Source of the DNA: Eledone cirrhosa
Taxonomy: Eukaryota
Length of the DNA stretch: 64,000 nucleotides
Direction of reading: 5' to 3'
NCBI GenBank assembly: GCA_964016885.1
Contig: OZ024742.1
Location: forward strand, 303,614,001 to 303,678,000
The notes below the pieces were generated by a model that worked only from the letters and a program-made list of their open reading frames with translations, did no database searches and was not told the origin of the DNA. Of this stretch, positions 2,577 to 52,140 are shown in pieces. The translations under genes and the position numbers were made by a program. Within the stretch, counting starts at the first letter, position 1. Each line of letters begins with the position of its first letter.

Positions 2577-2833
2577 GATTTCATTTATTGGCCACAGGGG
2601 CCGACATATAGGGGACAATACAAAAGACTGGGACAGTGGGGTTTTACAGACAAATCGAGTAAACAATATGAATAACAATAACAAAGTAACAATAAAGTAA
2701 CAATAAAATTACAAGAAAAAAATTCCCCAATAGGGGGGAGGATCACCTCTCAGGTACCCCCATCAGTCCTGAACGACACGACGCTTCGAGAGCACCCTGG
2801 AAGGGCACCCCTCTCCTTCTCAAGTTTACATAC

Positions 2834-5800
2834 CTACAGCCGCATGACCAGAGTGGGCCCACTCACACGGGCCATTCTCGCCACATTCACCCACCTTTCA
2901 GCAAATGTACTGGGGGGGGGGGGGGGGCAGCACTTCTCTCTCCACCCTCACCTTCCTTTCCAGGTGAAACTTGAAAAAGTTGACGAGGGATTGGCCGAAG
3001 AGAAAAGTGTCTGTCTTCAGTCCTTTCAACCTCGTCCACCATACAACCTCTTTCGCTACTACCACCAGACAGAGGAAAATTGCCTGCCCTTCCTGGCCAA
3101 AACAAGGCGGCGGGTCGATCTTCACTATGGACTCGGCCGATAGACGGATCCGTTCTACACGCGACAACAGCTGTTCAACATAACTCCCCAAGTCAGTAAT
3201 GCGCGGACACTGGACGAGTGCGTGCAGAATGGTTTCGTCGCTCTGTGCGCATCTCGGGCAGGTCCGTCTGACAGCCCTTCCGTGCCTGTAGAGTTTATCT
3301 CGAACCGGCAGTGCCCCCCGGTAGCACTGCCAAGCGAGGGATTTTTGTAAATTATCCATTGTCCCCGGCTCGAAAGTCCTCCGGTACAGACTAGTTAGTT
3401 CGACTTCGTTGACTCCTAGAGCCTCTCCGAGTGTGTCGTCGCACTTGCCCACCACTAATCCTCTATAGAACTCGAGAGTGGAAGTTTCACTGACCGCATT
3501 GCCCGCCTGGTAGAGGGCAGTGAGTGCCTGGCAACATTCCAGATGCCAGTCACCCAGTCTCGGTATCTTCTTGACTCAAGACTGCAGCTCAGTCAAAGAA
3601 ACGAGCTGCGGAAAGGCCCACCTGACAAACGGCGACCACACCTGTTCACCGTTTAGACAGAATATCTGGAGATGCCGCAGCCTCAGCGCGTGCCTGTGCA
3701 TCATTAGCCACGGCATGCCCAGCCCTCCACGTAGAGGGTACTGGCAGCAGATGGACCGCCTCACCAGCGGAAACTGAACCCTCCACAAGAATTTGAAGAG
3801 GACCCGCTCCAAGATGGCGAGGCGCGAACGGGGCCAAGGGACGACAGTCAGACTTTAGTAGATGACGGACGCGATGTACGCGTTGGCCACCTCCGTCCGA
3901 CCTTTCAGTGATAGCCTCATCCCAGCCCCTTTCTGGGTGAGATTGGCTACCCTGCCCGTCACCTCGTCCCAATTCTTATCCACCTGGAGGTCTGCCCGAA
4001 CCAAACCCCTAGCATCTTTACCGGTCCCTCCGTCCAGCGCCTAACGACGCTGTTGGACGGCATGGACTTGCCTCTCCAGGTGCCGAGTTGCAAGCCCACT
4101 GACTTTTCCGGGTTAACTTTTGCTCCCGTCAACCTTTCATATTCCTCCAATAAGTTGCCGACCACCTCGATTTCTGAGGTGTCCGACACCATCACGGTGA
4201 TGTCGTCCGCATAAGCCGACACAGACTTTCCTTATCCCGGTTTGAGCGGGATGTCCTGCAACAGCTCCAGCTTCCGCAGTAAAGGCCCGAGAGTCAATAC
4301 GTACAGAAAGGAGGAGAGGGCACCCTTGACGGAGCGATCGGGAGACCTGAAACGGTTCCGAGAGGTGGTCATTAATTTTGACCATCGAGCAGGTGCCGCT
4401 GTGCATTGCCGCGATCCAGCTTCTGAAGATGGGGCCGAAGCCAGCCGCCTTGAGGACAGCCTCCATGTACCGATGGTCGACCCTATCGAATGCTTTCGAT
4501 TAATCTAAATTGATCAGAGCCCCACCGAAGCCAGGTTTACACCCTACCCTCTCTATGACGTATCGCATTAGGTGGAGGTTGTCGTGTATGGACCTGGTTG
4601 GGATTGCGCAAGTTTGCGCCTCTCCAACCAAATCCCCGACGACAAGCGCCAACCTCTTCGCTAAAACCCTGGCCAAAATCTTAAACTCTGTGTTGAGCAG
4701 AGTTATGGGCCTGAAATTTTCTAATGTGTCCCTCTTGTTCTTGTCTTTCCTTATCAGCGTCACTACGCCCCGGCTCACAGAACTGGGAATACTCCCTTTT
4801 GCTGCCAGTTGCAGTAGAGGGCTTCGAGGAGATTGGAGTACAAATCTGGCATATTTACGTAAAATTCGTAGGGCAGACCATCCAAACCGGGTCACTTGCG
4901 CCTTATGCAGCCGACAAGGGCATCCTGAATCTCGGCTGAAGTAATTGGTTTTTCGCAGCGCCCAGCGTCAGCCATCGAGAGTTGCGGCAAGCCATCGAGG
5001 TAGGGACTGAAGTCCGCCACCATGACTGACCCGCCACTTCCCCCGAACAACCGAGCAAAATGTTGGCGAAGGCCTCACACATCCTCTTGGAATCGCTCAT
5101 CTCGTGCACTTCTCGGTCCGTCAAAGACCGAATCGTGGTTTTATTACCACGCTGCGCCTCTGCCACGCGGGCCCATCGAACAGCCTTGGTTCCCTCGTTT
5201 CTCAGAGCACGCGCCTTAGCTCTGACAATGCAACCTTCGTGTTTCGTATTGAAGAAATGGTCTAATGCCATATCTCGCCGCTAGCACGTCTTTCTATTTT
5301 TCTCTAACGCTACTTCTTTGCTAAACTCTATCGACATTACTCTAATCTCTCTTTTGAGAGCCCCCCCCCCCCCGCCAATCTATTGTTGACGACTCCCCTT
5401 GTCAACTTTTTCTTCACTAAATTGTTGACCTGGTCCCTGTAAGCCTTACGTGTCGGAAATGACATGTTTAGCTTCCAGTAACCAGGTCCTAACCTACGCG
5501 TCTTATCTAGGTCGACCATACAGATCACAAACTTGTGATCTGAATAGGCGACCGTTTCAAAACGTGGACAGCTTACACTATTTCTGTCTATTTTCCTAAT
5601 GAATATCCTGTCTATATACGATCTAGATGACCCTATGCGGTTAGTCCAGGTCCACACTGGCGCATTAGGGAAATCTAGTCGGTACCTGTCAGACAGTTGG
5701 AACTGGCTGATCAGGTTCTTGAGGCTTTTGCACACACACCCCCCCGCTCCTATCGGATACTCCCACACAGTCCCAGCGTGCGTCTAAGATGCCGTTCCAG

Positions 5801-6190
5801 TCCCCCGCTAACAGTAAAGGGTGAGACGTACCCAGAAAGGCTTCCAGTAGGAGCATAGACGGCCACCAGTCTAAAGGCACCACCTTCGTTATTGTTCACG
5901 TCCAGGACCACGAACTTCCCGTCCGGGTCCCGGAAGATCGACCTTACCTCGAGATCCAGGCCTTTAGTAAACAGCACTGCCACCCTGCCTCCCAATCCCG
6001 GCCGGCTAAAAGATGCAAAGATCTGATAGTCGTCGAAAATGGGGGCTAGTGCGCGCGTGTTGGAAATCCTGGTCTCGCTGACTGCAATTACATCCATTTC
6101 TATAGACCTGAGGTCGTTGAGCAGGTGAACCTGCTTCCAGGACGATCCCAGGCCTCGAACATTTAAACATCCTACACTTAATACGGCCAT
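2834..6190 (-). pseudogene. Tx1 element 1 ORF2 (APE endonuclease, RT, zinc finger), frameshifted
   Basis: Fragments MAVLSVGCLNVRGL, LLLAGDWN, SYIDR..SDHK, GPGYWKLN, FRPITLLNTEFKILA, LRQGCP, AYADD, GGLGMP, CPRCAQSDETILHALVQC. Confidence 0.93.
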
Positions 6191-6221
6191 GTTGGCAGGT
6201 TAAACAGAGAGAGAGGAAGGT

Positions 6222-8185
6222 TTACTTACCTTCCGGGCTCTTGTGAAGGTCGGGTTGTTCGACCTCCATTGTTGGTGGGGTTTCTTTTGGGAACCCCTTT
6301 AAAAGTCTTGAAGTGGGTTTTATGTTCGGGGTTCCCACGTCCCGAGGAAAGCTGTCTCGTATTTCTTTGAATATGTCGAGCGACATTCGCACCAGAACCA
6401 AATCTTCCGGCACGCGAAATGTGCTCGATTTAAAAAAGTCCCCCTCTTTTTGTATATTTTCACTTCGTGCTACGAGGGCCATCAGTTCCTTGTTGGCCCT
6501 CCTGACGAGCACGAAGTTTTGTATGTTTTGTTGGTGTGATTTTATTTGTTTGCGTGGCTGTGGTGGTGATGGTTGTGGTGGTGATGATTTTGGTGGTGTT
6601 GTTTCGGTTGTATCTGTGTTTGTTGTGAGTGCGGTGTCTGTGGTTTCAGATGTTTGTGTGTATATTTGTTCTTGCGTCTGTTTCGGTTGTTTGCGTTTGG
6701 GGGATTCTGGTGATGGTGATGGTGGCGTTGATGTTGGTGTTATTGGAGAGATGTTTACGTGGGTGGTGTCTGTGTTTTTTTATTGTGGGTGATTTTGTGC
6801 TTTGTTGAGTTTTTTCTTTTCTTTTTGTGCTTCCTTTTTTGTATTTTGGGGGATTTTGGTTTTCCCTCATTTTCACTACTGGTAGATGAGGGGTCTGTGT
6901 CTGTAAGTGGATCTGTATGTATGTTTATGGTTTTATTGGTGTGTGTATTTTTTGGGGGGAGGGGGAATTTGACAGCTTTCCGCGTTTCCCTCCTGGGTGG
7001 TCAATGTTGCTGGTGGTCTTTATATTGGTGTTGTTGTTGGTGGTTTTGCCGGTGCTGGTGTTGGTTGTGGTTGTCGCCCCGGCGTCGGCAGCTGTGGAGC
7101 CTTTCGACCCCTTGCCTTTTTCAGCAGTTGAAGGCAGAAGGCTCGCAAATGGGTTTTTTCCCCACAAACAAAACACTGCAGCCTTTTGCCTTCGGTCATA
7201 ATGTGAATGACGGTCCCATTCTGAAGGCGGATGTGGTCCGGGATTGTCTTCACATTCTCGGGCCTGATCTGGCCTGATCTGGCCGTTCTGGTCACTTCTA
7301 TAGGGACGGTATCCGTCCCCTCCACAATCACACATCCCAGAAGCCACCACATGTCAAGTCCTGGTGGGATCTGGGAATGCAGAGACGGGCCGTTTTTTTT
7401 CCCATGTCGGAGGGGTACATTATGACCTTGCTGGTTTTGCAAGGAGTCATAGCGTGTTTCATAGCGAGGGCTTCTGACTTGAACAACACCGAAATGGTGC
7501 CGTACTGTCTGCCCCTCTCTATGTACTGGGTGTCTTCTCTGATGCACCTCAGCACGACTTCGACATCTTTTGTGGGATTAAAGCTGCCCTTTTGGTTTGT
7601 GCTGAGATGCATCTATAATGCACCGTTCTGCGCTCCACTGCCTCAATAGCTTCTACCGGGACAGTTAAGTTGGCCCAGGTTTGCTCTTGCTTGATGAGCT
7701 TCCATGCCTGGGCCAACTTTTCATCTTTGTTTGAGAGGTCCATGTTGAAGCATGGCCTCTTTTTTGCTGCTGCCGCAGCGAAAGTGTTCTTCTTGTTTTC
7801 GTTGGGGGTGTTGTTGTCGTTGTTCTTGTTGGTGTTGTTGTTAGCACTGTCGCTGTTATCATTGTTGTCTTTGTTGCCACCGTTGTTCTCGGTGCAGTTG
7901 GTATTGTTGCTGTTGGTGTTGTCGCTATTTGTTTTCATGTTAGTGGTGTTGATATTGTTGTTGTATTTGTTATTTTTTTTTGTTATCTGTATTTGCGTTG
8001 TCGCTGTTACTGTCATTTTTGTCAAAATTAGAGTTATCATTGGTATCATTGGTATCTTTGTTTACCTTGTTTGTGGTGGTCTTTGTGTTATCAATGTGTG
8101 TTAATTTCTTTGTAGCGCTCCTCTCAACTTCTACGTCATTGTCGCACAACAGCCGCCATATCGCTGGGGGGCGTGGCTCAGCCAT
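6222..8185 (-). pseudogene. Tx1 element 1 ORF1 (gag-like, CCHC zinc knuckle), frameshifted
   Basis: Starts MAEPRPP; N/T-rich low-complexity N-terminus; CFVCGEKTHLRAFC knuckle; stop at 6222, about 30 nt before the ORF2 ATG. Confidence 0.85.
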
Positions 8186-8383
8186 GTTTTTCTTTTCTTC
8201 GTAAATGTTTTAACATGTAAAAAAAGTTCAAATATTTCGGCCCAAATATTATACTTTCCCCTTCACGGGGCAAAGTCTAAGGGCTTATATCCCTTACACA
8301 ACAAGAAATATTTAACAACAAATAATTTTAACAGGCAAATAAAGCGACTTACTGTGAGCGAGCTAAATACGTCCGCTTGGACC

Positions 8384-8398: not shown

Positions 8399-8691
8399 GA
8401 TTTCTTTATTGGCCACAATTGGCTCACATCAAGAAAAACATTACAGACGTCACAGGACGGTACGATGTGGGTTTTGTGCGTGTAAATATTTTTATTATTT
8501 ATATAAGAAAAGAAGAAAAAAAACATAGAAACATATATATATATAAACAATAAAAATGAAAATTGAAACAATGAAAAATTCCCCAATAGGGGGGAAACCT
8601 CCGAGGGTTACTCGTGGCGAAAACCACACAAAAGACCACGGCATATGACCACCAGGGCAAACGCCCTCTCTCAATTTTTCCATTTCTCAAA

Positions 8692-11600
8692 CTACAGACG
8701 TATATTCAGAGCGGTCCCGTTCACTCGGACCATTCTCACTACATTCACCCACCTTTCAACAAACTTGCTGGAAAGCAGCACTTGCCTCTCCACCCTGATT
8801 TTCCTCTTTAAGAGAAACTTGAAAGAGTTAAATAGGGATTCGCCGAAGAGGAAAGTGTCTGTTTTTAACCCTTTCAACCTTCTCCACCACACAATCTATT
8901 TCGCCATGGCTACTAGGCAGATGAAAACCGCCTGCCCTTCCTCCTCGAAGGAAGACGGCGAGACCATCTGCACAATGGACTCAGTCGATAACCGGATCAG
9001 TCCTACACGCGACAGCAACTGTTCGACATAGCTCCACAAGTCAGCAATGCTCGGGCACTGAACAAGTGCGTGCACGATGGTTTTGTCTCTCTGCGCGCAT
9101 CTCGGGCAGGGTCAGCTGACGGCACTTCCGTGCCTGTAGAGCTTATCTCGAACCGGCAGCGCTCCCCGGTAGCACTGCCAGGCCAGGGATTTTTGGAAGT
9201 TATCCATAGGCCCTGGACTGAGGGTTCTCCGGAAGCGACCAAACAGCTGATCTTCTTCGACGCCCAGGATCTCTCCGATAATATCGTCGCTCTTCCCCTC
9301 CACTAGTCCTCTATAGAACGGCGAGGTGGATGTTCCACCGATACTGGTGCCCAGCTGGCAGAGGGCAGTGAGCGCCTGGATACATTCCAGTTTCCAAGCG
9401 CTATCCCTCGGTTTTTCTCTGACCCAGTACTGCAGCTCAGTCAAGGAGACAAGCTGCGGGAAAATTGCCTGGCGAAGGCGTCCACACCTGTTCACCGTCA
9501 AGGAAGCACCAGAGATGTCGCAGCCTCAGCGCATATTTGCGCATCATCAGCCATGGCATGCCCAGTCCTCCACGCAACGGGTGTTGACATCAGATGGATC
9601 GTCTGACCACGGGAGCGCGTTCCTTCCACAAAAAGCGAAAGAGGAGGCGTTCCATTTTGGTGTGAGTTGGGCCGGGGCAAGGGACGACGGTGAGGCGGTA
9701 GCAGATGGCGGATGCGATGTACGCATTCGCCACCTCCGCCCGGCCTTTCAGGGACAGCTTCCTCTCGGCCCATTTCTGCGTGAAGGAGGCCACTTTGCTC
9801 GTCACCTCGTTCCAGTTTTTCTCCATCTGGAGGTCCGGTCCGAACCAGACCCCGAGCAATTTAACCGCTCCGTCCGTCCAACCCCGCACGACGCTGTCGG
9901 ACGGCATGGACTTGCCTCTCCGGGTGCCGAGCTGCAAGCCCACCGACTTTTCCTGGTTTATCCTTGCTCCTGTCACCGCTTCGTATTCCTTGAGAGCGGT
10001 GCCGAGCATCTGGACGTGTCTGGTGCTCGACACCACCACGGTAACGTCGTCGGCGTAAGACGATTCGGATTTCCCGCATCCCTCATTGCCCCAAGTTTGT
10101 GCAGTAACGGCTCGAGAGCCAATACATACAAGTGGGACGAGAGGAGACAACCCTGGCGGATTGAGCGCATGATGCTGAACGGCTGCGACAGGTGACCGTT
10201 CACCCTCACTATTGAGCATATGTCGCTATACATCGCAGCGATCCAACCCCTGAAAACGGGCCCGAAACCGGCTGCCTCGAAGACCGCCGCCAAGTAGCGA
10301 TGCTCGACCCTATCGAGTGCTTTGGATTGATCCAAGTTGATCAGGGCCCCACCCGTGCCAGGTTCCTTACCCACCCTCTCTATGATGTATCGCATGAGGT
10401 GGAGGTTGTCGTGTATAGATCTGTTCGGAATGGCGCATGTCTGCGCCCCACCCACCAGACCCCTGACGACAAGCGCCAACCTCGTTGCTAACACCTTGGC
10501 CAAAATCTTGAACTCTGCATTTAGCAGTGTTATGGGCCTGAAATTATCGATAACATCCCGCTTGTTCGGGTCTTTTCTCAGCAGCGCCACCGCTCCCCGG
10601 CTCACAAAACTGGGAATGCTCCCGTTCCGCTGCCAGTTGCAGTAGACGTCTGCCAAGAGGTCACCGAACAAGTCTGGCATAAATGCATAAAGCTCGTAGG
10701 GCAGACCATCCAGACCTGTCGATTTACCCTTCGTGCAGTTAGCCATCGCTTCCCGTATTTCACCGGCTGTTATTGGCGTTTCGCAACACTGTGCTGCGGT
10801 CGTCGAGAGCCGAGGCAGTCCGTCGAGCTATGCACTGAAGTCCATGCCCCGATTCGGGCCGCAGCTGCTCCCGAACAGTTCAGCAAAGTGCTGCTGAAAA
10901 GCTTCACACATCTGCTCGGGCTCGAGCAACACGCACCCGTTTTGGTCAGACAAAGACCGAATTGTGGACTTGTTGCCACGTCACGCCTCTGCCACCCGGG
11001 CCCATTGGACGGCTTTTGTCCCCTCGTGTTTCAGAGCACGCGCTCTAGCCCTGACAACGCAGCCTTCGTGTTTTGCATTGAAGAATTGGTCGAGTGCCAA
11101 TCTCGCCGCAAGCACGTCGGTTGCGATGCCTGTCCTAAACGCCTCCTCTAGCTTTCTGACTAGCTCTCCCTCTACTCTATTTTCCTCTATCACTAGTCCT
11201 TTGCTAAACCTAAGCGACTCTACTTTAATTACTTTTTTCGGGGCGAACCACCACCTGTTGTTGACGACCGCTCCCGTCAACGTCCGCTTAACTAATACGC
11301 TAATCCGGTCTCTGTAGGCTTTGCACGCCGGGAAAGACGCGTTAGGCTTCCAGTAACCGGGCCTTTGTCTATGAAGTCTGTCTTTGTCGATCTCACAGAT
11401 CACAAATTTGTGGTCTGTGTAGTCGATTATTTTAAATTGTGGACAACTTATACCAGCCTTATCTAGTTCTCTGCAGAATACCCTATCGATATACGATCTG
11501 GACGACCCGATGCGGTTTGTTCATGTCCACATTGGCACATTCGGGTATCCAGTCGATACCTGTCAGACAGTTCAAAACGCCTGAGCAGGTTGGTGAGGCT

Positions 11601-11980
11601 CTTGCACCCTCCTCCCCTATCCACAAGCCCCACACAGTCGGGGCATAGACGGCTACTAGCCTTAAAGCGTTGCCTTTGGTGCCGCTTACGTCCAGCTCCA
11701 CCGACTTACCTTCTGGGTCTAGGAAGATGGCCCGTATGGCGAGATCCAAGCCACTCCGGAGAAGGACGGTAACCCCTCCCCCCGATCCTGGACGGCTGGG
11801 AGATGCGTATACATCGTAGCCGCCGAAGATCGGTGCGAAGGCTCGTGCTTCGGAGATTCTGGTCTCACTGATGGCCACCGCATCTATGTTTAGTGACCTG
11901 AAGTCGTTGAGCAGTTGACCCTGCTTCCAAGATGACCCCAGGCTACGTGCATGTATACTGCCTATTCTGAGTACGGCCAT
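8692..11980 (-). pseudogene. Tx1 element 2 ORF2, with stops, frameshifts and small deletions
   Basis: ORF fragments 11483-11980, 10981-11403, 9973-10746, 9590-10219, 9112-9501 and 8692-8892 are colinear with the ORF2s of elements 1 and 3. Confidence 0.92.
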
Positions 11981-11999
11981 GTTGGATTAGAAACGTGGC

Positions 12000-13920
12000 A
12001 AGTGAGAAAGTGGTGAAGGGACAGGAAACCGTCCCTTCTGCTGGTCATGGATGTTTCCAAGAGGATGTCAGTGTATATCCTCTTGGTAACCGACCCTCTG
12101 AAGTCTCCAACTGCGTTGGGGAATTTTTGTTTTAAAGGTTTGTACTGTTCTATTGAGATTTCAATGATCCTTATGTTTGTCGGGAGAGTTCTTGGTGTTG
12201 GTGGGGTGTAGCAGTTTTTTTCTGTGATGTCTGTGTGCTGCTTTATATATTGTATGAGTTCTTTTTTGCCATGTTTATGGCTGTGTACTTTGTTGGGGGG
12301 GGGGGGTGATTTTGTTGCTGTTTTCTTCTTGTTGCTGTTTGGTGTGTGTGTGTTTTGTTTTGTTTGCGTTGTTGGTGTTTTTGGTGGTGGTGTGGTTGTT
12401 GTTGGCGGTGGTGCTTGTGCTGGTGTTGGTGATGGTGGTGGTGTTGCTGCAAGTTTCCTTGCTGCCTTTACACCTATTTGTGTGCCTTCGCTTTTGGAGG
12501 GTGAATCTAAGGTTTTCTTTCTTTTTTGTTTTTGTGGCAGACCGTTTGCCACTTTCCTCCCGCCTCAAACTCCATGTCAAATTCCGTGGCGTCTGGGAGG
12601 GGTATGTGATCCACGGCTGTTGGTGGTGATAGTGGAGCCCTCTTCGGCCATTTTGTTGCTGGTGTAGCTACTTCAAATGTAGCTATTGGTGTTGCCGCCA
12701 ATGATGCTGCTGCTTTAGTTGTCCGTGGCGTTGGTACGGATGCCACGGACGTTGTCCTCCTACTCACCGTGGAAGGGGCTTCTGCATTTATTGCCTGTCC
12801 TGCTCTTGATAGCAGCGGATCAGGGGTCGGAAGGAGGGGTCCTCTTCTTGGTTGTCTTCTGCGTGCAGAAGGCCCTGAGGTGACCCTTCTGCCCACAGAG
12901 ATAGCACTTTGGGCGCCTTCCTTCCACACTTATAGGGAGTTGGAATCCTTTCTCGAGGTCTATCATGTCTGGGATGGCCTCGATGCACTCCTGGTCTGTC
13001 TGTATTAGCATGCCTATTCCTGACCAGTTCTCTCTTCCCATTCTCTGTATTTGCAGTATGATGGCCTTCTCCTCGATTCCAGCAAGTACAGACGCGGCCA
13101 ACCAAGGTATGACCTGGGTCACTTGGATCCTCACAATTTTCTGTCCGCAGTAGGAGGGCACCAAGACTACCTCCTCACTCGTTAGGGTTTCCAAAGTGTG
13201 AGACTTCGCCTCTTGGGAGGTGGCGAAGAGTACGTCTACTGTGGTGTACGTTTTGCCTCGGGTGATGTGGCTTTTGCGCGCCCAGGCGCACCCCAAGGCC
13301 TTTTGGATTTGAGCCTCCGTGGATCTCTCCACCCAATGTGACGTTTTGCTTACGGTGCGGTAACTCACCGTGCGCAGCTGCTGACCTTTCTTGTCACCAT
13401 GGCTCTGACGACTGCCATCTCCTCCTCCGTGACTAGCACTATCTCTATACTTCGGGCCACACCTGCGAAAGAAGTGGCCCCGTTTTCAGCGGCACCACTA
13501 TTGCTGCCGCTACTACTGCTACTGGTCTTGTTGTTGGTGCTGTTGCCCTTGCTACTGCTACAAACGGTGTTGTTGGTGTTGTTCCTGTTATCACTGTTGT
13601 AGTTGGTTGTGTTTTTGGTGCTACCGTTGTTGTTGCTTTCGGTGCAATTTGTATTGTTACTTTTGTGTTGTCGTTGTTTATTTTCTTGTTAGTGGTGTTA
13701 ATATCGTTGTTGCATTTGCTGTCATTTTTTTCTGTTGTCTGTATTTTAGTTGTCGCTGTTGTAGTAGGTGTGGTAATTTTTTAAAAATTAGTGTACTCAG
13801 TGTTGTTGTCTTTGTTCACGTTGTTTGTGGTGGTATTTGTTGTATTACTTTCTGTGACCCTTCTCTCAACTTTTACGCCGTTATCACACGACAGCAGACA
13901 TTGCATGGGGGCTCAGCAAT
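12000..13920 (-). pseudogene. Tx1 element 2 ORF1 remnant
   Basis: 12820-13368 encodes SVEGRRPKCYLCGQKGHLRAFC; the start appears mutated (AAACATTGCTGAGCC vs AAACATGGCTGAGCC in element 1). The downstream boundary is approximate. Confidence 0.8.
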
Positions 13921-14989
13921 GTTTTTTTAAATTTTTTAAAGTAAAATGTTCAAATATTGTTCAAATATTTGGGCCAAAAGGCCCAAATATACTTTCCCCG
14001 TTACAGGGCAAAGTCCAAGGGTTTATATCACTTACACCACAAGAAAAATTTAACAATAAATAATTATAACAGGTAAATAAAGCGACTTACTAGGAGCGAG
14101 CAAAAAAGACGTCCGAACAGACCCAAAATAATAATAATAATAATGGAATTTTGAGTAAATTGTGCGTATATCGGATAATGTACATTGCTTTTTATAGAAG
14201 GTTAATATAAGCAGCATCATACGATTTCCTTTGCAGAACCGCCGCTCCATATATATCTATGAGCATCTGAAAACCACAAACAGAATCTGTTCGGATATTC
14301 GGATACATTTTTCTATCTAACTATCTCTCCCTGTCTCTTTCTCTTTATATATATATATATATATTTCTCCCTCTCTCTGTATATATAAACATATATATAT
14401 ATATGCGTGTGTGTGTATGTGTGTGTGTATGTGTGTGTGTGTATACATTTATATGTGCTGTGTCAGAAAGAATATCGAAGAGGAAATAATATAAATTGTC
14501 GGAACAATAACAGGATGAAGGTACAATGGGTTTTGAATGGTTACATTCAACTTTATGAGCAATATTACCATTAAGACAGGAAGTGGGCAACCAAAGAAAG
14601 TGTCAGTGAGAGAAGAGAGGAGGGAGATTTATGAATATCTGTGAATTTAATCAGTGTGTACGTGTGCTGATAAGCTTTACATGATATATGCAGTGTATGA
14701 GGGTATATGGATGGAGGGAGTTAGTGCATTTAGTCCGTATGTATGTTGTGCTGATTGGGGTGCAAAATGAAAGGTTGTCTTGTGATAGGGTACAAAATTG
14801 AAGGATGGATTGTGAATGGGTCTCAAATGCGAGCGTATGTGGTGGTAGGTTGCAAGATAAAAGGGTGTAAAGAAGTCACTGCATTTTTCAAATTCAAAGC
14901 AACATAACAATCAAGGCGGAAAACATGATATTCTCCAGTGTGATAGGAAACCTTTGATAAAAAAGAACATCACAGATTGACATATTGTA

Positions 14990-23770: not shown

Positions 23771-24697
23771 TCATGTCAGGTCACTCTTGAGTGCTACTGG
23801 TAACATGTAAACCAGTACGACCTGTCGCATGGTCGGGTCGTCGGCGACTAAACTGGCAACCCCACCAAGTTTACTTGGTGAGGAGGGTGATTTTGGACAC
23901 CCTGCAGGACAAAAAACAAAACCTAACAAAGGGCGGAAGAACTCATAAGAGTAAACGGCCATCCAAAAATGTGTAAATATGTATATACAGATGTACATAT
24001 GTATATGTATGTATATGCCTGGGGTGTCACGGAAGGGCATGTACCTCTGTATAGAGGGCTAGCTATGCACTTTCCAGGAAGATCGTCCTGCATTGGGTCC
24101 CACCTGACACTGAGCTCACACCTGTGGCCCCAAGAAGCTGTAGCATGCGACAGTGGCCATACCCCCATAAACAACCTTGGTTGGCAGGCCGAACCAGGTT
24201 GAGGGTAGCCTGACGGGTCTGAAACCCCCCGGTGAGTTGGATATGGGGATGCCTGCCCCTGCATGCGAAGACTTGACTCGGCGGAGTGAGTGGAGGAGGA
24301 CAACATCGCCCCAACGGTCACGAAGGCGACGACAGCAAGCAGTGTGGAGCGCTAGGGCAGAGCAAGGCACTACAGTTGTCGGGGCCATCCATTGCATCCA
24401 AGGACGTCCCTGGTCGTGACGGTCCTTCTTACCGCTTCTGCGCCCGAGTGAGTGGGACCGTCACTGTCCACTGGCTCTCCCACTATAAACCTTTCCCGCG
24501 CAGGTTTCTTCTTTATGGGCGAGAGGTGGCGGTAACCTCTGGGAGTTGCCAGTCTGACTCCGGTCTCTTCCCCTGCCCCCACTGTCCCCGAACCTGCAGG
24601 TCAAGGTTCGGCCTCCACAGACACATTTGTGCCCATGGCAGACGGGAACAACAATAAAAAAGAAGTAAATCATCGTTTACGATGGACAAACCAAGAT
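23770..24697 (+). mobile_element. Internally deleted (bipartite) RTE/BovB-like element
   Basis: RTE-like 5'UTR joined to the ORF C-terminal C2H2 motif FPCPHCPRTCRSRFGLHRH and the 3' motif CATCGTTTACGATGGACAAACC; no EN or RT visible. Confidence 0.7.
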
Positions 24698-34904: not shown

Positions 34905-36371
34905 CTATATATTGGGCTTAAAGTTTTGGAAGGAATGTCTGAAGCGGTGCTGGCAAGTTGCAAACACCTCAGATTTTTTGTTAAGTAGGTTACGGTTGGA
35001 GAAGATAATATTGTGTGTCTCTAGTATACAGAGGTTACAAAATGTATTAGGTGGTTTGTACGAGGTCGCGCTGCCTATCACTTCCCATTTGAGTGTGTAT
35101 GGTTTATTTTTAGATTTTAGATAGTGTATGTAGCTAGAAAGTGAGGTGGAGTTTGCTAGGCTGTGCTTTTTGAACGAGTGGATGTGCGAATTATATCTGA
35201 TTTTGAAGCAGTTAGAAGTGGAGCCTACATAGGTTTCTGAAGAGTTGTTAGTCGTGACGGTGCATGATTATATGATATCCTTGGTTAGGCATTTTTTATC
35301 TAAAGGGCAGGTTCTATTAGCTCTACAGTTACAATTATCCTGTGCGTTAGTCCGCTGGTTATAATGCAGTGCGGAAGTCTGTGTGGTAGCTATAGGATTT
35401 TGGGCGTTCGGGTTGACAACCCTGGTGTTATTACTTATACTAGTGTTATTTCTATTGTTACTGCCGTTGCTATGGTTGCTTGCTACAGTGGTATTTAGAG
35501 GGTTTGCATCCCGTTGTGATTTTGTTTGTTGGAAGTAAGAACTAATTTTACTATTATTGCTGCTAGCTATATGGTATGCTAAGTTAGGTGTCGTAGAGTA
35601 TGAGATTTTAATGGTGTTTTTGTTTAAGAGGTTGTGGTACTTGTGTCCTAGAGGGAAGTTTTTATCTAGTAGTGAGAAGAAAGCCCTAGGTATGTTGGGG
35701 GAGACATTTAGGTTGAAAGGAGGGTTGAAAAATGTATTATTTCTTCTTCTATTTTTGCTTTTAGTGTTTGGTGTGTTGCTTCCTTCTAAGGCCCCACAGT
35801 AGTTTCCATGGTAATGGTTACTTCCGGTGGCACCCTCCGCTTTGGTGCACTTGTGGTTGCTATTCCTATTATTAGGTTTCCTCATGGACATGTTGTGCGA
35901 GATGATGTTGTAGCTATGTGTTTTCTTAGGTAGGAACTCAATTTCTATATTATGGCCGGAGCTAGCTAATGCTTGATTGTAATATTGTGAGTTTTTGCTA
36001 AATATGTTTGCGTCATAGGACAGACTAGAGATTCTATTGGACACCCTCTTAGAGATAGAGTTTAATATTGATCTAGGGTGATTAGACTTGGTATCTACGT
36101 AAATAAGTTTCTCGTTAGGCTTATGGAAAGGTGTATATATTTTTGAGTCTAGGTATAGTGTGGCGTCTAGGAAGTTAACATTTTTAGTGTTTTTGTCCAT
36201 GGTGATACTAAGGTTAAAGTTTTTGAATGTCTTATGCAATTGTTTTCTAGTTCTTTCTATATTAAATTTTTTGTATTCTATAAGTAGAAGTGCATCATCG
36301 CGGTACAAACCACCGTTGAGGTAAGGGAGGTCCTTATGGATTTCATTGAGGAGGTATAGGCCGACCAAATA
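34905..36371 (-). pseudogene. Naiad RT plus GIY-YIG endonuclease ORF (5' truncated, one internal TAA)
   Basis: ORF 35268-36374 continues in frame after TAA (DII*SCTV..TYVGST..RYNSHIHSF..CNLCILE..LLNKKSE..CQHR) to TAG at 34905. Confidence 0.88.
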
Positions 36372-36377
36372 CATATA

Positions 36378-36511
<134 letters not shown>

Positions 36512-43633: not shown

Positions 43634-43708
<75 letters not shown>
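43634..43708. repeat. (GATA)n at the 3' end of Tx1 element 3
   Basis: Direct read. Confidence 0.97.
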
Positions 43709-43920
43709 TTCTTTATTTACCATAAAGGCATAAAAAGAAGGGACAAATACAAAGGGGGAGTTTACATATAATCGAGTAAAAAGGGTGTAACATGAAAATA
43801 ATCGAAAATAACCAAAAGGGAGGGGACGTGATGGGGGTTGCACACACCCCCGAAAAAGTGTGCAATCCTTTGCCCGGGGAGCACATGGAGAAGGTGCTCC
43901 TCTCTCCTTTACTTCTTTAC

Positions 43921-46900
43921 CTACAGGATGGTATACAGAGAAGGCCCATTTACACGAGCCATTCTCGCCACTATCACCCACCTTTCATAAAACTGCCTGT
44001 GGCCAAGCACCTCTCTCTCCATTCTTATCCTTCTTCCGAAGTGATATCGGAAGAAGTAGACCAGACTATGGCCAGAGAGGAAGTTGCCTGACCTCAGACC
44101 TTTCAATCGTGTCCACCAAACAACCTCTTTCAACATGGCTATTACGCACAGAAAAACCGCCTTTGCTTCCTTTGTGAAGAGGGGAGGCGGTTTGATTGTC
44201 ATCACGGACTCGGCGGTCAATTTAATCGGCGCCACCCGCGACAGCAGTCGTTCGGCGTAGCCCCACAGATCAGCCACGCCCGGACATTGCACCAATGCGT
44301 GCGCAACGGTTTCTTCGTGACGCACGCATCTAGGGCAAATCTTTTTTGAGGGATCCCTGCCCGGGCGCCCGTGTCTGTAGAGCCTCTCTCGAACGGGTAG
44401 AGCCCCCCGGTAGCACTGCCAGGCCAGTGACTTCTGGAAGTTGTCCATTGGTCCTGGGCCGAAAGTCCTACCGAACAGGCTGGCCAGTTCGTCTTCTTCC
44501 ATGTCCAGCGACTCTCCAAGGGTGTCATCGCCCCTGCTAGCCGCCAGCCCTCTATAGAATGATGAGGTGGATTCTCCACCGATGGCCTGGCCCGCTTGCC
44601 AGAGAGCCCTGAGCGCCTGAGCACACTCAGTGTGCCAGTCTCCCAGTTTTCCGGATCTTTGCTTGACCCAGGAATGTAGCTCGGTGAGCGAGACGAGTCT
44701 CGGAAAGGCTCGTTTCACGAACGGAGCCCACACCGGTTGACCAGTGAGGAATACCTGTAGGTGCCGTAGCCTTAATGCGTGCCTACGCATCATCAACCAC
44801 GGCATCCCCAGCCCTCCTTTCGAAGGTTGTTGGCAGCAGATGGATCTTCTCACCATAGGAGGACGCTTCTTCCAAAGAAATTGGAAGAGCATGCGTTCCA
44901 TGGTGGTGAGTGTTTCCTTAGGGCAAGGCACGACAGTCAGGCGGTAGTAAGTGACGGACGCTATGTAAATGTTCGCCACCTCCGCCCGGCCTTTTAGGGA
45001 CAGCTTACACTTGGCCCATTTCTGGGTTAGTGCAAACACCTTGTTCGTAACCTCGTTCCAGTTCTTTTCCACCTGGAGGTCCGGTCCAAACCAGACCCCA
45101 AGCAACTTTACCGGGCCCTCCGTCCAGTGTCCGACGACACCGTCAGGAGGCATCGGTCTGCCTCTCCACGTTCCGAGTTACAGCCCGATGGATTTTTCCC
45201 GGTTCAGTTTCGCTCCTGACAACCTTTCGTACTCCTCCAGTAAGGTACCGATCGCCTCGATCTCCGAGTCGGTTGATACCATTACTGTTACGTCATCGGC
45301 GTAGGCCGACACCGCTTTGCTCAATCCTGGTTCCAGGGGGATACCCTGCAACAACTCCAACTTCCTCAGTAAAGGCTCGAGAGTCAATACGTACAGAAGG
45401 GAGGAGAGAGGGCACCCCTGTCGAATGGATCGTGTGATTTCGAACGGCTTCGAAAGGTAGCCGTTCACCTTGATCCTAGAACAGATGTGGTTGCTATGTA
45501 GGGCAGTGATCCAGCCTCTGAAAACAGGACCGAACCCAGCCGCCGCTAGCACCGTATCCAGGTAACCATGGTCGACCCTATCGAAGGCCTTAGACTGATC
45601 TAAGTTGATCAGGGCCCCACCGAGGCCGGGTTTGTAGCCAACCCTCTCTATGATGTATCGCATGAGGTGGAGGTTATCGTGAATGGACCTGGATGGGATA
45701 GCACATGTCTGCGCATCTCCCACCAGGCCACCCACGACAAGCGCCAAACTCTTTGCTAACACCTTGGCCAAAATCTTTAACTCTGTGTTTAGCAGGGTTA
45801 TGCGCCGAAAATTATGTATATTATCCCCCTTGTTCTCGTCCTTCCTCACCAGCGTGACTACGCCCTTGGCTACAGAACAAGGAATTCTGCCGTTCTGCTG
45901 CCAATTGCAGTAGACCGCTTCGAGGAGTTCGGAGAAGAAGACCGGCATTGCTAAATAAAGTTCGTAAGGTATACCATCGAGACCTGGAGATTTGCGTCTG
46001 CTGCATTGGTTCAGCGCATCTCCGATCTCATCAGCCGAGATTGGTCCCTCACAGGACTCTGCCTCTTCGTTCGAGAGACGCAGCAGGCCGTCGAGGTATG
46101 GACCGAAATCAACGCCCCCGCCCGGACCCTCGCCTCCCCCGAACAATCGGGCAAAGTGCCTTTGAAAGGCCTCGCACATCTGCTTAGGCTCCCAGATCAC
46201 CCGTCCATCTTCGTCTTGCAACGACCGGATGGTGGATCGATTTCCACTCTTAGCTTCTGTCACGCGGGCCCATCCAACGGCTTTGGCCCCCTCATTACCT
46301 AGAGCACGTATTTTACTTCGAATGACGCAGCCTTCGTGCTTTGCATCGAAAAACTGGTTCAAGGCCGTCCTCGATGCCAGCACTCTGGCCACATCTTCGC
46401 TCTTGATTGCCTCTTCTAATTTACCTGTTAATTCTTTCTCGTTTCTATTCCTATCGGCAGCTAACATCTTGCTATAACTTATTGATTCTGTTCTAATCTC
46501 TCTTTTGAGAGATGCCCACCATCGGTTGTTGACGATTGCACCCGTCAACCTCTACTTAACTAATCTGCTAATCCGGTTTCTGTAAGTCTCTTTTGCCGGT
46601 AAAGACAAATTAAGTTTCCAGTAACCGGGACCCTGTCTATGTGTTTTCTCGAGATTGACCACGCAGGTCACTAATTTGTGATCCGTGTAGCCAACCGTGC
46701 GCATTTCTGGACAGCTTAATATGTCCCTATCCTTACTTCTAACTAAGAATCTATCTAAGTACGATCTAGATTGACCACTGTGGTTTCTCCAAGTCCAGGT
46801 AGGCACAGTTGGAAAATCTAGTCGATATCTATCGACCAAGTTAAAACGGTCGAGTAACCCCTTGAGGCTGTTACACCCCCCTCTATTAGGACATGCTCCT

Positions 46901-47358
46901 GCATAGTCCCAACGTGCATCCAGGATGTCATTCCAATCCCCCGCTAGAAGCAGGGAACGCGACGTTCCCAGAAAAGTCTCCAAACGCTGGAAAAAGTCGG
47001 GCCGTTCAGCTCCGAAAGGGGAGTAGACGGCGACCAGTCTCAAGGCCGCACTTTCACTACTGCCAACGTCTAGCACCAACAAACGACCCTCCGGGTCCGA
47101 GTGCACAACCTGTACGGCAAGACCCAGGTGTTTTTGCAGCAGTACGACAACCCCACCCCCACCTCCAGGTTGACAGAGAGATGCATGCACCTCAAAGTCA
47201 TCGAAGGTGGGGGCCAGCTGGCGCACGACGCTGATTCGAGTCTCACAGATAACCATTACATATATACTACATGACCTGAGGTCATTTAGAAGCTTTGCTT
47301 GCTTCCAAGTTGAGCCCAGGCCACGTGCATTCAAACATCCTACTCTTAACACATCCAT
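43921..47358 (-). pseudogene. Tx1 element 3 ORF2: a single reading frame of 1146 codons with two nonsense codons
   Basis: ORFs 46552-47358, 45178-46548 and 43921-45153 share one frame, broken only by TAG (46552) and TAA (45178); GCLNARG, AGDWN, YTDH, RQGCPLS, AYADD, CPRC..HALVQC. Confidence 0.93.
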
Positions 47359-47391
47359 GTGGGCGGCAGAGCCAAAGGAGAGTGTAGAGAC

Positions 47392-48945
47392 CTACCTTTT
47401 CGCTTCCCGGGGTTCGGGTTGCACGACTTCGGGGGTGTTGGGTGAAGGGGTGTCTTGTGGTGGTGTGGGGTCGTCAGTGTGTGGTGGGGTTGGGGTGTTT
47501 GGAGTTGTGTTGGGGAGGGGAAGGGGAGGGGGAAAGCTTTTTAGTAGGACGCGGTTTATGGGTTTGACAGAGGGTGGTCCTACCTCCTCCTTAAAATGCT
47601 TTTTTAGTTTTTGGTAGAGGTTCATTGGGATCTTTATTAGTTTTAAATGTGGGTAGTTTTCTGACGAAACAAAGTTTACACCTTCGGTTTGTACCGAAGG
47701 ATTATTGAATATGAGCTCATTTAATTTATTATTGTTTCTGTTGATGTAAGTATAGTGTAATGTCTTTTTTTCCGATGGTGTGAGTGTTTCGAAGAGGGGA
47801 GGGGCAGGTTTGGTTTTGTTTGTTGCTGGAGGGGTGTTTTCTGTTTTGTTGGATTGTGTTGAGATTTGGGTGGGGGTTGTTTGTCCTTGTGTGTTTTGCA
47901 CATGTTTTCTTTTTTTCCTTTTAATCTGTCTGAAGGACTCCGTTTCTTCCTCCGAATTCGTTGGGTTATCTTCAGTGTTGGAGGGAAGAGGTATGTTTGC
48001 TGGTAATGTTTCCGTGTTGGTTTTCTTTGTGGGGGAGATGGATGTCACTATGTTAGACTGTGTTGTGTGTTGTGTCTGCGGTGGTTGTGTTGTTTTATTG
48101 AGTGAGAGGTTGGGTGGGCCTGTATTTTGTTTTGGGGTAATGTGTTGTGACTGTTTGTGTTGTGGTGGTGTTGTGGTTTTACTGAGGGACGGGTTGGGTG
48201 GGACTGAGTTTTGTTGTTTGTTTATCTGTTGTGGTGGTGGTGGTGGAGCTGGTGTTGGTAGAAGGGTTTTCTTTTTGTTGAGTTGGGGACAAGCGGCCTT
48301 CAGGTGCCCTCTGCCTGCACAGATATGGCAGGACGGCCTTCTCCCCTCCACGCTAATGTTTATATACCCGTGGTCCTCTAATAGGATTCTGTCGGGTATT
48401 TGAGCGATGCGTTCAGGCTTCATTTGTACTACCAGCTCTATACCTGTTCCACTGAACGCATTGCCTGTGGTTTTCCCAATGGAAATCACGTTGTCATTCA
48501 CTGGATCGATGAAGCCAGCTATGAGCCAGCAGTAGTCCACATCTGGCATCATTGCATCCAGCCATATGCGTTGAGTTCTTTTCCCCATATAAGATGGATA
48601 AAAGGTGAAATTTTTCGAACGAATCGGTGACAAAGCACTTTTTTTTGCCGCCGATTCGTTCTTCATGATAATTGCTAGGCTTCCATACAGTCTGTCTTTT
48701 CTTATGAAAGTGGTTTCATTAAGTACTTCTGTGAGTACTGTTTTGATATCTGCTTGAGAAGGCTGTTCAGGTTTTTTTGTACTGTTGTTGATGGTCCGAA
48801 ACTTGACCGTTCGGCTTTCAATGTCTTTCGTGAATTCTTGAGGCATTTTTACCGATAAAATACCATTCTCTCCTTCACTTATGTATTGTTTGGCGTCCGT
48901 GATCCTTCGTACCACATCTGAAATGTTTTCCGCTATATAAGTCAA
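47392..48945 (-). CDS. Tx1 element 3 ORF1 (gag-like, CCHC knuckle); N-terminus probably in the frameshifted ORF 48942-49271
   Basis: 517-aa open frame with SVEGRRPSCHICAGRGHLKAAC and a P/T/Q-rich C-terminal half; stop 33 nt before ORF2. Confidence 0.85.
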   Translation of the reverse strand: MTYIAENISDVVRRITDAKQYISEGENGILSVKMPQEFTKDIESRTVKFRTINNSTKKPEQPSQADIKTVLTEVLNETTFIRKDRLYGSLAIIMKNESAAKKSALSPIRSKNFTFYPSYMGKRTQRIWLDAMMPDVDYCWLIAGFIDPVNDNVISIGKTTGNAFSGTGIELVVQMKPERIAQIPDRILLEDHGYINISVEGRRPSCHICAGRGHLKAACPQLNKKKTLLPTPAPPPPPQQINKQQNSVPPNPSLSKTTTPPQHKQSQHITPKQNTGPPNLSLNKTTQPPQTQHTTQSNIVTSISPTKKTNTETLPANIPLPSNTEDNPTNSEEETESFRQIKRKKRKHVQNTQGQTTPTQISTQSNKTENTPPATNKTKPAPPLFETLTPSEKKTLHYTYINRNNNKLNELIFNNPSVQTEGVNFVSSENYPHLKLIKIPMNLYQKLKKHFKEEVGPPSVKPINRVLLKSFPPPLPLPNTTPNTPTPPHTDDPTPPQDTPSPNTPEVVQPEPREAKR

Positions 48946-49503
48946 AGATTTCTTTGTTTTCTGTGCAAATGAAATCTTGTCGTCTGCTTTGTTTTCTGAT
49001 ATGGTGTTATTTTTGTGTTTGTTGTGTCTTTGTTTGTGTTATTAGTATTGTCATGCAATTTTTCAAATTTTTTTTTTTCGTTGTTGGAATCCAAGTCCAG
49101 ATTTGTGTTTTCGTCATTTAATTTTTTCTCCGCAGATTCGTCTGTTTTTATTTTAATTTTTCCTTCCTTCTCTATGACGTTAGTTGGGAAGGAAGGGAGG
49201 ACTAAAGCGTGCGAGCTTACAACTCTTACCGCTGTCCCCCCACCACTATTTTCGTTCGCTGCGTTTAACATTTCTGTTAGACGATTGAAATTTTTTACAC
49301 AAAATTTTTTAAAACAGGTTTTTCACCTCTAGGAGGGGTAAAGATGAGCTGACCAACCGCCTGACAGTTCAGACGGAGGGTCAAGCTACACAATTGTATC
49401 AAAATTAAGTTTGAACTCACAAAATTTCCTCAAAAAATTTGAACAAAACTTCTGTGCGAAGTGAATGACATCCACACTGTAGAACAGACGACAGCTAGAT
49501 TGT

Positions 49504-49622
49504 ATAGATAGATAGATAGCTAGATAGATAGATGAATAGATAGATAGATAGATAGATAGATGAATAGATAGATAGATAGATAGATAGATGGATAGATGAA
49601 TAGATAGATAGATAGATAGATG

Positions 49623-49704
<82 letters not shown>
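49504..49704. repeat. (GATA)n at the 5' side of Tx1 element 3
   Basis: Direct read, with some GATG/GAAT variant units. Confidence 0.97.
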
Positions 49705-51547: not shown

Positions 51548-52125
51548 GGCGGTGAATTGGCAGTATCGATAGAGGGTAGGACATGCTTTCCAGCATAGTT
51601 ACGTCCCTTTACAATCTGAGTTCAAATGCCTCCGAGGTTAACTTTGCCTTTCATCCATACAGAGGTCGATAAAATAAAATACCAGTAATGTACTGGGTAA
51701 TTGCTGGCCTTGTGCTAAAAGTAGAAACAATTATATATATAGGCAGTATCGGTAGAGGGTCGGACGCCATGCTTTGACGCATGGAGTTACGGCCCTTGCT
51801 ATTCTGAGTTCAAATCCCGCCGAGGTTAACTTTGCCTTTCATCCTTACAGGGTGATTTAAAATAAAGTACCAGTAATGCACTGGATAATTGCTGGCCTTG
51901 TGCCAATAGTAGAAACAATTATATATATATATATAGGCGGTGGATTGGCAGTATCGGTAGAGGATCGGACGCCATGCTTTGCAACAAAGAGTTACGGCTC
52001 TTTATGATCTGAGTTTAAATCCCGCCCAGGTTAACTTTGCCTTTCATGATTACGGGGTCGATAAAATAAAGTACCAGTAATACACTGGAATAATTGCTGG
52101 TCTTGTGTCAAAAGTAGAAACAATT
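51548..52125 (+). mobile_element. Head-to-tail array of three Nin/Deu-domain SINEs (51548-51732, 51742-51920, 51936-52125) separated by (TA)n
   Basis: Each copy has an A-box (T/A)GGCAGTATCG, a B-box, the Nin core and an AGAAACAATT end. Confidence 0.9.
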
Positions 52126-52140
52126 ATAAATATATATATA

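Follow-up and report, generated by a model that had tools for sequence, protein, structure and literature searches.

Insertion of a Tx1-like LINE family into GATA microsatellites of Eledone cirrhosa

Introduction

The question raised by this locus is how a retrotransposon comes to lie in one kind of microsatellite while its relatives in the same stretch of DNA lie in another. The stretch analysed comprises 64,000 nucleotides from Eledone cirrhosa (assembly GCA_964016885.1, contig OZ024742.1, positions 303,614,001 to 303,678,000); at its full length it is referred to below as the window, and coordinates count from its first letter. It contains a full-length long interspersed element (LINE) on the minus strand (43706–49501, the window copy), with two open reading frames (ORF1 and ORF2) and both untranslated regions (UTRs), set between two (GATA)n arrays. 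Two decayed relatives, elements 1 and 2, are flanked by (ATT)n. The sequence-only reading of the window copy had proposed a young family with a preference for (GATA/TATC)n, acquired by an apparent switch from (AAT)n, which could be resurrected by repair. The way in which LINEs with APE-type endonucleases come to target microsatellites has been described as not well understood (PMC3812793). The comparisons reported here suggest that the family's APE-type endonuclease probably selects the site TC^TAT(C/A)TAT, usually within (TATC)n, and that this choice is most likely helped by short RNA-DNA pairing.

Targeting of GATA repeats

Exact words from the two ends of the family occur 1678 times (3') and 771 times (5') in the genome. 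The sequence GAA-ANN-TATCTAT is read at 1327 of the 1678 3' ends (79%), and ATAGATAGA lies within 30 nt of 337 of the 383 5' ends on the forward strand (88%); the reverse-strand count (1668) was set aside, since single sites enter it more than once. The same word occupies 192 of 87,010 positions in the non-Tx1 DNA of the window and 152 of 407,928 in 59 AAT-family loci, a background of 0.04–0.22%, and its presence at the 5' junction is therefore not due to chance. A family has been considered target-specific when one sequence type makes up more than 20% of its flanks (PMC4494074), a share exceeded at both ends here. The proposed preference for GATA/TATC is thus borne out by the genome-wide flank survey. 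All 85 distinct family ends in the fetched loci continue with TAT and none with ATT (73 with TATCT, 10 with TATAT). Of the ends outside this family, grouped by a rough pattern, 61 of 69 AAT-like ones continue with ATT and none with TATCT, and 67 of the 80 others continue with TATCT and five with ATTAT. In the non-Tx1 DNA of the window TATATATAT is found 2002 times and TCTATCTAT 21 times, (TA)n words being about 100 times commoner than TCTATCTAT there; the family nevertheless prefers TCTATCTAT.

The insertion site could be read at base level. Nearly all families end in AATAAA-(0–2 nt)-GAA plus three largely family-specific bases, followed by the target, with no poly(A). The AATAAA lies 6–8 nt from the element end in both the GATA- and the AAT-flanked groups, which end alike, each with its own target beginning at the first base after the element. 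Target-site duplications were surveyed at 91 loci, 75 of which had both ends; 32 could be resolved through an impurity in the repeat, 30 lay in pure repeat and 13 were left unresolved. The 32 resolved sites, two of which are tandem copies with a match extending into the next element, give the consensus 5'-TC^TAT(C/A)TAT. The duplication is 19 bp long in 12 of them and 16–21 bp in 27, with mixed bases at its far edge. The C at position -1, just upstream of the duplication, is present at 30 of the 32 sites; it falls outside the duplicated segment and was not a selection criterion. It is also found in eight of the ten copies ending in ATA, where the element RNA cannot pair with that base. Repeat units beyond the duplication were seen at none of the 32 sites. 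Since 13 of the 32 have no intact TATC unit directly upstream, long arrays are favoured rather than required, and one repeat unit can suffice; the target is a short motif and not, as had been supposed, the long array.

Elements of one family or of several stand head to tail in arrays, with short repeats at the joints (e.g. L072, L079, L160, L163), and another Tx1 3' end precedes 10 of 40 5' ends. At C1:229238402-229238513 the first 24 bp from the element's 5' end occur three times in tandem. A recurrent repeat not recognised as Tx1, ending ...GTGT-AT(C/T)-TATCTATC, lies beside eight insertions (L067, L071, L072, L085, L188, L237, L248 and L250); it may be a different element that uses or supplies this target.

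Endonuclease and RNA in target choice

In the mechanism proposed for this family, the ORF2 protein would nick the GATA strand at 5'-ATAGATA^GA-3', and the freed 3' end would prime reverse transcription from a fixed point of the RNA (target-primed reverse transcription), probably aided by a few base pairs with a read-through UAU(C)UAU. The cut in the other strand would fall about 19 nt from the nick and depend little on sequence. With about five repeat units duplicated, every insertion would renew its landing site, and GATA families of different kinds would accumulate in tandem arrays. Such a duplication, together with the 5' ends found after another Tx1 3' end, suggests that the elements renew their own target.

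There is a precedent for an APE endonuclease setting a specific site in Tx1L of Xenopus laevis (PMC1950540, PMC1919474), the target of which differs, being the Tx1D transposon. In vitro the Tx1L endonuclease shows site specificity, its nicks being confined almost entirely to its own target, and nicking by the L1 endonuclease has been reported to change with the betaB6-betaB5 hairpin loop (PMC1950540). The Tx1L loop is reported to have 11 residues, two more than that of L1, whereas the loop of the present family, located by alignment to the L1 endonuclease chimera 2v0s between T189 and S199 (residues 189–199) with S194 at its tip, has nine between the anchors, like L1. The tip residue is S in 11 of 11 GATA rows of the alignment and I or T in nine of nine AAT rows, and residue 152 is Y in the GATA rows and C in seven of the nine AAT rows. 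Y152 presumably stands opposite L1 R155. Two residues are candidate determinants of the GATA and AAT targets: 194 at the tip of the hairpin, with S in one group and I in the other, and 152, with Y and C respectively. Columns fully diagnostic between the two groups make up 31 of 240 in the endonuclease and 11 of 370 in the reverse transcriptase.

Several observations weigh against selection by the endonuclease. The C-terminal region has 35 diagnostic columns in 345, about the endonuclease's share, and in a comparison of no more than two groups every residue specific to a group will correlate with the target. There are exceptions at the candidate positions: L221 has T at 194 and L at 152, and element 1 has Y at 152. 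The repeat is present at the 5' junction of only 9 of 15 5'-truncated copies, as against 42 of 43 full-length ones. The 32 resolved sites were picked by requiring a match between 5' and 3' flanks, 13 further sites being unresolved, and target positions +1 to +7 are identical to what a read-through RNA would carry, so that pairing could explain those positions. The behaviour of the enzyme is deduced throughout from sequence, and present activity of the family is argued from copy similarity only.

In a possible, though not probable, explanation the RNA is the guide: the endonuclease would nick AT-rich microsatellites loosely, a read-through transcript would pair with the nicked strand, and only sites matching the flank of the donor copy would prime. 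The target would then be inherited through the RNA, and a lineage would be retargeted whenever its source copy landed in another repeat. Normal 3' processing takes place 10–30 nt downstream of AATAAA, and with this signal so near the element end in both groups it would leave flanking repeat on the RNA. The similar ends of the GATA and AAT groups, each followed from the first base by its own target, fit this explanation, as do endonuclease loops that are of the same length and close in sequence in the two groups; pairing between retrotransposon RNA and target has also been discussed as a filter acting after the nick (PMC1950540, PMC13295347). However, an RNA tail of several units should slip and add units, which is seen at none of the resolved sites, the C at -1 of the ATA-ended copies cannot arise by pairing, and although some copies sit in (TA)n or next to (ATT)n, the sample contained no family derived from them that targets either repeat. 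Specificity set by the endonuclease and specificity set by RNA pairing can also act together. It seems rather doubtful that a few endonuclease residues (194 and 152), or a few repeat bases carried by the RNA, suffice to flip the target, two living sister lineages having split (GATA)n and (AAT)n between them.

It is very improbable that there is no active targeting at all, the repeats being either a tail made by the element or the places where broadly inserted copies survived. The repeat does always abut the 3' end, and the 5' ends that follow another Tx1 3' end imply that some arrays are element-made. Repeats are nevertheless found on the 5' side of the element as well, and upstream of the duplication too, and the register of the nick is fixed, already so in the youngest copies. 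The duplicated segment on either side includes impure target bases, and on this ground both an origin of the repeats from the tail alone and passive survival were rejected. Selection of the site by the endonuclease, probably with some help from the RNA, is the reading retained below.

The AAT lineage and the proposed target switch

Element 1 (2577–8383, minus strand), which is Tx1-like and decayed, belongs to a sister family flanked by (ATT)n. Element 2 (8399–14124, minus strand), likewise decayed, comes from another (ATT)n-flanked family and stands head to tail with element 1 through (AAT)5. The homology of their ORF2s to that of the window copy, noted from sequence alone, was confirmed, with 54–79% identity per high-scoring segment pair and 68% in DNA. 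A third AAT-flanked family has its own 5' end and 3' UTR (L212, L213, L217, L220). A 205-bp repeat resembling a short interspersed element, present three times in tandem at 51558–52135 of the window, is also frequent beside the 3' ends of AAT families.

It is improbable that the target changed recently and directionally, from (AAT)n to (GATA)n, within the host lineage. Two results speak for such a switch: a tree of the reverse transcriptase alone (columns 430–800) makes the AAT families paraphyletic, the element 1 group joining the GATA families (support 0.99), and elements 1 and 2 differ by 5–10% from their best matches, so that their families look older. In contrast, trees of the whole ORF2, the endonuclease and the C-terminal region separate the 13 GATA rows from the nine AAT rows as two sister groups (SH-aLRT 99.9 and 100). 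The trees were built with FastTree and fast IQ-TREE; the set with these SH-aLRT values omits eight distant outgroup rows. A GATA copy served as anchor for the rows, a possible source of bias in the trees. The GATA rows share 68–84% identity with the ORF2 of the window copy's family, and GATA families differ by up to 32% of ORF2 residues, indicating that the group is old. In addition, the Argonauta hians protein P0124 nests within the AAT group, and P0001 from Argonauta, which lies outside both groups, carries the GATA-type Y-x-GACP motif. The sequence-only reading's switch therefore gives way to an old divergence of two lineages, in whose ancestry the target changed long ago, in one direction or the other; the trees disagree on the root.

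Age, intact copies and related families

The family is young, as had been proposed. A set of 43 full-length copies, chosen by identity and including the window copy, has a mean pairwise distance of 1.0% and a minimum of 0.017%; the closest pair sits on two different chromosome-scale contigs, and the copy tree is ladder-like. ORF2 is open in 25 of these copies and both ORFs in 15. Both are open in two of 36 copies taken in contig order, a set that skips copies fetched earlier, and in five of 45 when nine earlier copies of the same stretch are added; at that rate the genome would hold tens of intact copies. The search for stop-free copies thus makes resurrection by repair unnecessary, since natural copies with both ORFs open exist, and from the similarity of its copies the family is likely to be still active.

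The window copy itself is a dead, older member, on an older branch of the tree and with 27 private changes, and its two stops are missing from almost all sequence in four sequencing runs. In a check for polymorphism at this locus, no record reached across it. A second young GATA-flanked family (L203, L262–L281) has 79% ORF2 identity to the first, many open 1150-codon frames and, in a set of 20 copies, a divergence of 0.26% (median); the two differ by 304 synonymous and 236 non-synonymous codons. Intact young copies thus occur in at least two GATA families. A search for a third lineage in the genome, near Argonauta P0001, covered 20 loci out of 86 matches, scoring being limited to the best candidates, and all 20 belonged to the second GATA family. 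In runs X5 and X6, labelled as other organisms (B and C), low-depth contigs are about 99% identical to the window copy's family. In X5, depth on window 43700–49500 is about 11–20 per contig, rising from 5' to 3', and other relatives reach thousands. Low-copy presence in relatives, horizontal transfer and carry-over DNA are the candidate explanations.

Structure of the window copy

The sequence-only reading described the element as lying between (GATA)n arrays of about 75 and 200 bp, which agrees with the arrays found by TRF: 18.8 units over 75 bp at 43634–43708 and 50.2 units over 201 bp at 49504–49704, (TATC)n in element sense. The 3' flank (43634–43705) would include the 3' copy of a target-site duplication of about 19 bp, at about 43687–43705; the array is pure, and the length was therefore taken from other copies. 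The 5' flank (49504–49704) consists of the pre-existing target array and the putative 5' copy of the duplication.

The 3' UTR (43706–43920) ends in AATAAA (43717–43712)-GAA-ATC without a poly(A) tail; the same AATAAA-GAA-ANN end is found in the GATA and AAT families. Upstream of AATAAA there is a stem of just 3 bp (-3.1 kcal/mol), in which a double change affects one pair; this was too weak, and a conserved 3' UTR structure was dropped from consideration. ORF2 (43921–47358) runs from an ATG at 47358 to a stop at 43923–43921, 1145 residues plus stop, and is, as first described, a single frame of 1146 codons with two in-frame stops (46554–46552 and 45180–45178). It encodes an APE-type endonuclease (about residues 1–240, 46639–47358; Pfam PF03372), a reverse transcriptase (PF00078) and a C-terminal zinc-binding domain (zf-RVT, PF13966). 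ORF1 (47392–49271) starts at an ATG at 49271 and is predicted to encode two domains resembling RNA recognition motifs (RRMs), a CCHC knuckle and a proline-rich tail. In the window copy its frame is shifted near 49014, where 13 bp that an intact copy retains are deleted. The 517 residues first counted as open in ORF1 hold as the span after a premature stop at 48944; this downstream frame is open for 548 codons from stop to stop, or 484 from the first Met. Among copies with both ORFs open, ORF1 has 625–634 residues. An 84-bp duplication lies inside its proline-rich part (48059–48257). The 5' UTR (49272–49501) starts with AATCTAGCTGTCG, a limit set by the 5' ends of other copies (the 771 exact 5' words).

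The element is an L1-group LINE, likely of the Tx1 clade. Its ORF2 has the L1-group order of endonuclease, reverse transcriptase and zinc-binding domain, and target-site duplications (mode 19 bp) and 5'-truncated copies (15, with fewer 5' than 3' words in the genome) are present. The nearest solved structure to the reverse transcriptase is human L1 ORF2p (E 6e-42, against 7e-20 for R2). Database matches include one labelled Transposon TX1, at 26% identity, the nearest ones being unnamed or hypothetical; Argonauta hians proteins match at 58–67%. An ORF1 with RRMs and a CCHC knuckle is the layout of the Tx1 clade. Pfam gave nothing significant for the window copy's ORF1, and zf-CCHC appeared below cut-off in three of 11 family-member ORF1s, with the pattern CX2CX4HX4C readable in the sequence. 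The structural model of an intact ORF1 (pLDDT 82) has a core of two RRM-like folds followed by the knuckle; it matches tandem RRMs (Foldseek E 2.6e-5) and the La RRM (Z 9.5, root-mean-square deviation 2.4, 81 residues aligned), so that the Tx1-type layout is present, with RRMs predicted from the model. A mammalian-type L1 was ruled out, as no poly(A) follows AATAAA-GAA-ANN and the target is TC^TAT(C/A)TAT rather than TT/AAAA.

Elsewhere in the window, an open frame with a YRDD motif (35268–36383, minus strand) resembles a fragment of a Penelope-type reverse transcriptase, and a GC-rich island (24000–24650) looks like a piece of another retroelement.

Comparison with known systems and significance

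Dong belongs to the R4 clade, with a restriction-like endonuclease after the reverse transcriptase, and Waldo, Mino and SART1 belong to the R1 clade. These non-long-terminal-repeat retrotransposons all target simple repeats: (TAA)n for Dong, (ACAY)n for Waldo, (AC)n for Mino and (TTAGG)n for SART1 (PMC3812793, PMC7265360). Dong shares the repeat of the AAT group; an identity with Dong was ruled out by the N-terminal APE domain. SART1 needs three repeats and poly(A), whereas the present family can insert at one unit and copies no poly(A). Closer in kind are Kibi, specific for (TC)n, and Koshi, specific for (TTC)n, which are microsatellite-specific Tx1-clade LINEs of teleosts (PMC4494074, PMC3812793). 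They are likened to the present family by target habit alone and differ from it in that its target is (TATC)n, that of its sister group (ATT)n and its host an invertebrate; targeting of (TC)n or (TTC)n was ruled out by the TAT that follows all 85 ends, and (TC)n continuations numbered two among 100 listed 3' ends. Crocodilian Tx1 families inserted in (TTCC)n or (TTTC)n (PMC4494074) likewise combine a tetranucleotide preference with related families in neighbouring targets, the repeat being different and the account of them giving neither a site resolved to the base nor a target-site duplication; systems of the Kibi, Koshi and crocodilian kind are also covered in PMC4640811. Octopus vulgaris has 13 recently active L1-Tx1 families with 421 insertions, given in a table, with no target analysis in the part of the paper concerned (PMC13282606); by description, they resemble the present family in class and youth. 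In the literature searched in full text, no Tx1 family was found with (GATA)n or (AAT)n as its target; some may be listed in Repbase, in Kojima and Fujiwara (2004) or in PMC4494074 (figure and supplements). It is well supported that the window copy's family and its AAT sisters are of the same kind as Kibi, Koshi and the crocodilian Tx1s, with two targets that are apparently unreported.

Here, natural copies resolve the insertion site to the base. The existence of intact copies, and of a differently targeted sister differing at few endonuclease residues, makes the question of nuclease versus RNA pairing directly testable. The related 3' ends in GATA or AAT repeats, at least 21,140 in this genome, affect the design of microsatellite markers and assembly. 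If the nuclease picks the site, the GATA and AAT lineages would be a natural test of how LINEs choose their targets. Should so few endonuclease residues or RNA-borne repeat bases indeed suffice to flip the target, the family would provide a precise, poly(A)-free and retargetable integrase, and elements of this kind would be seen to build and renew the sites at which they land.

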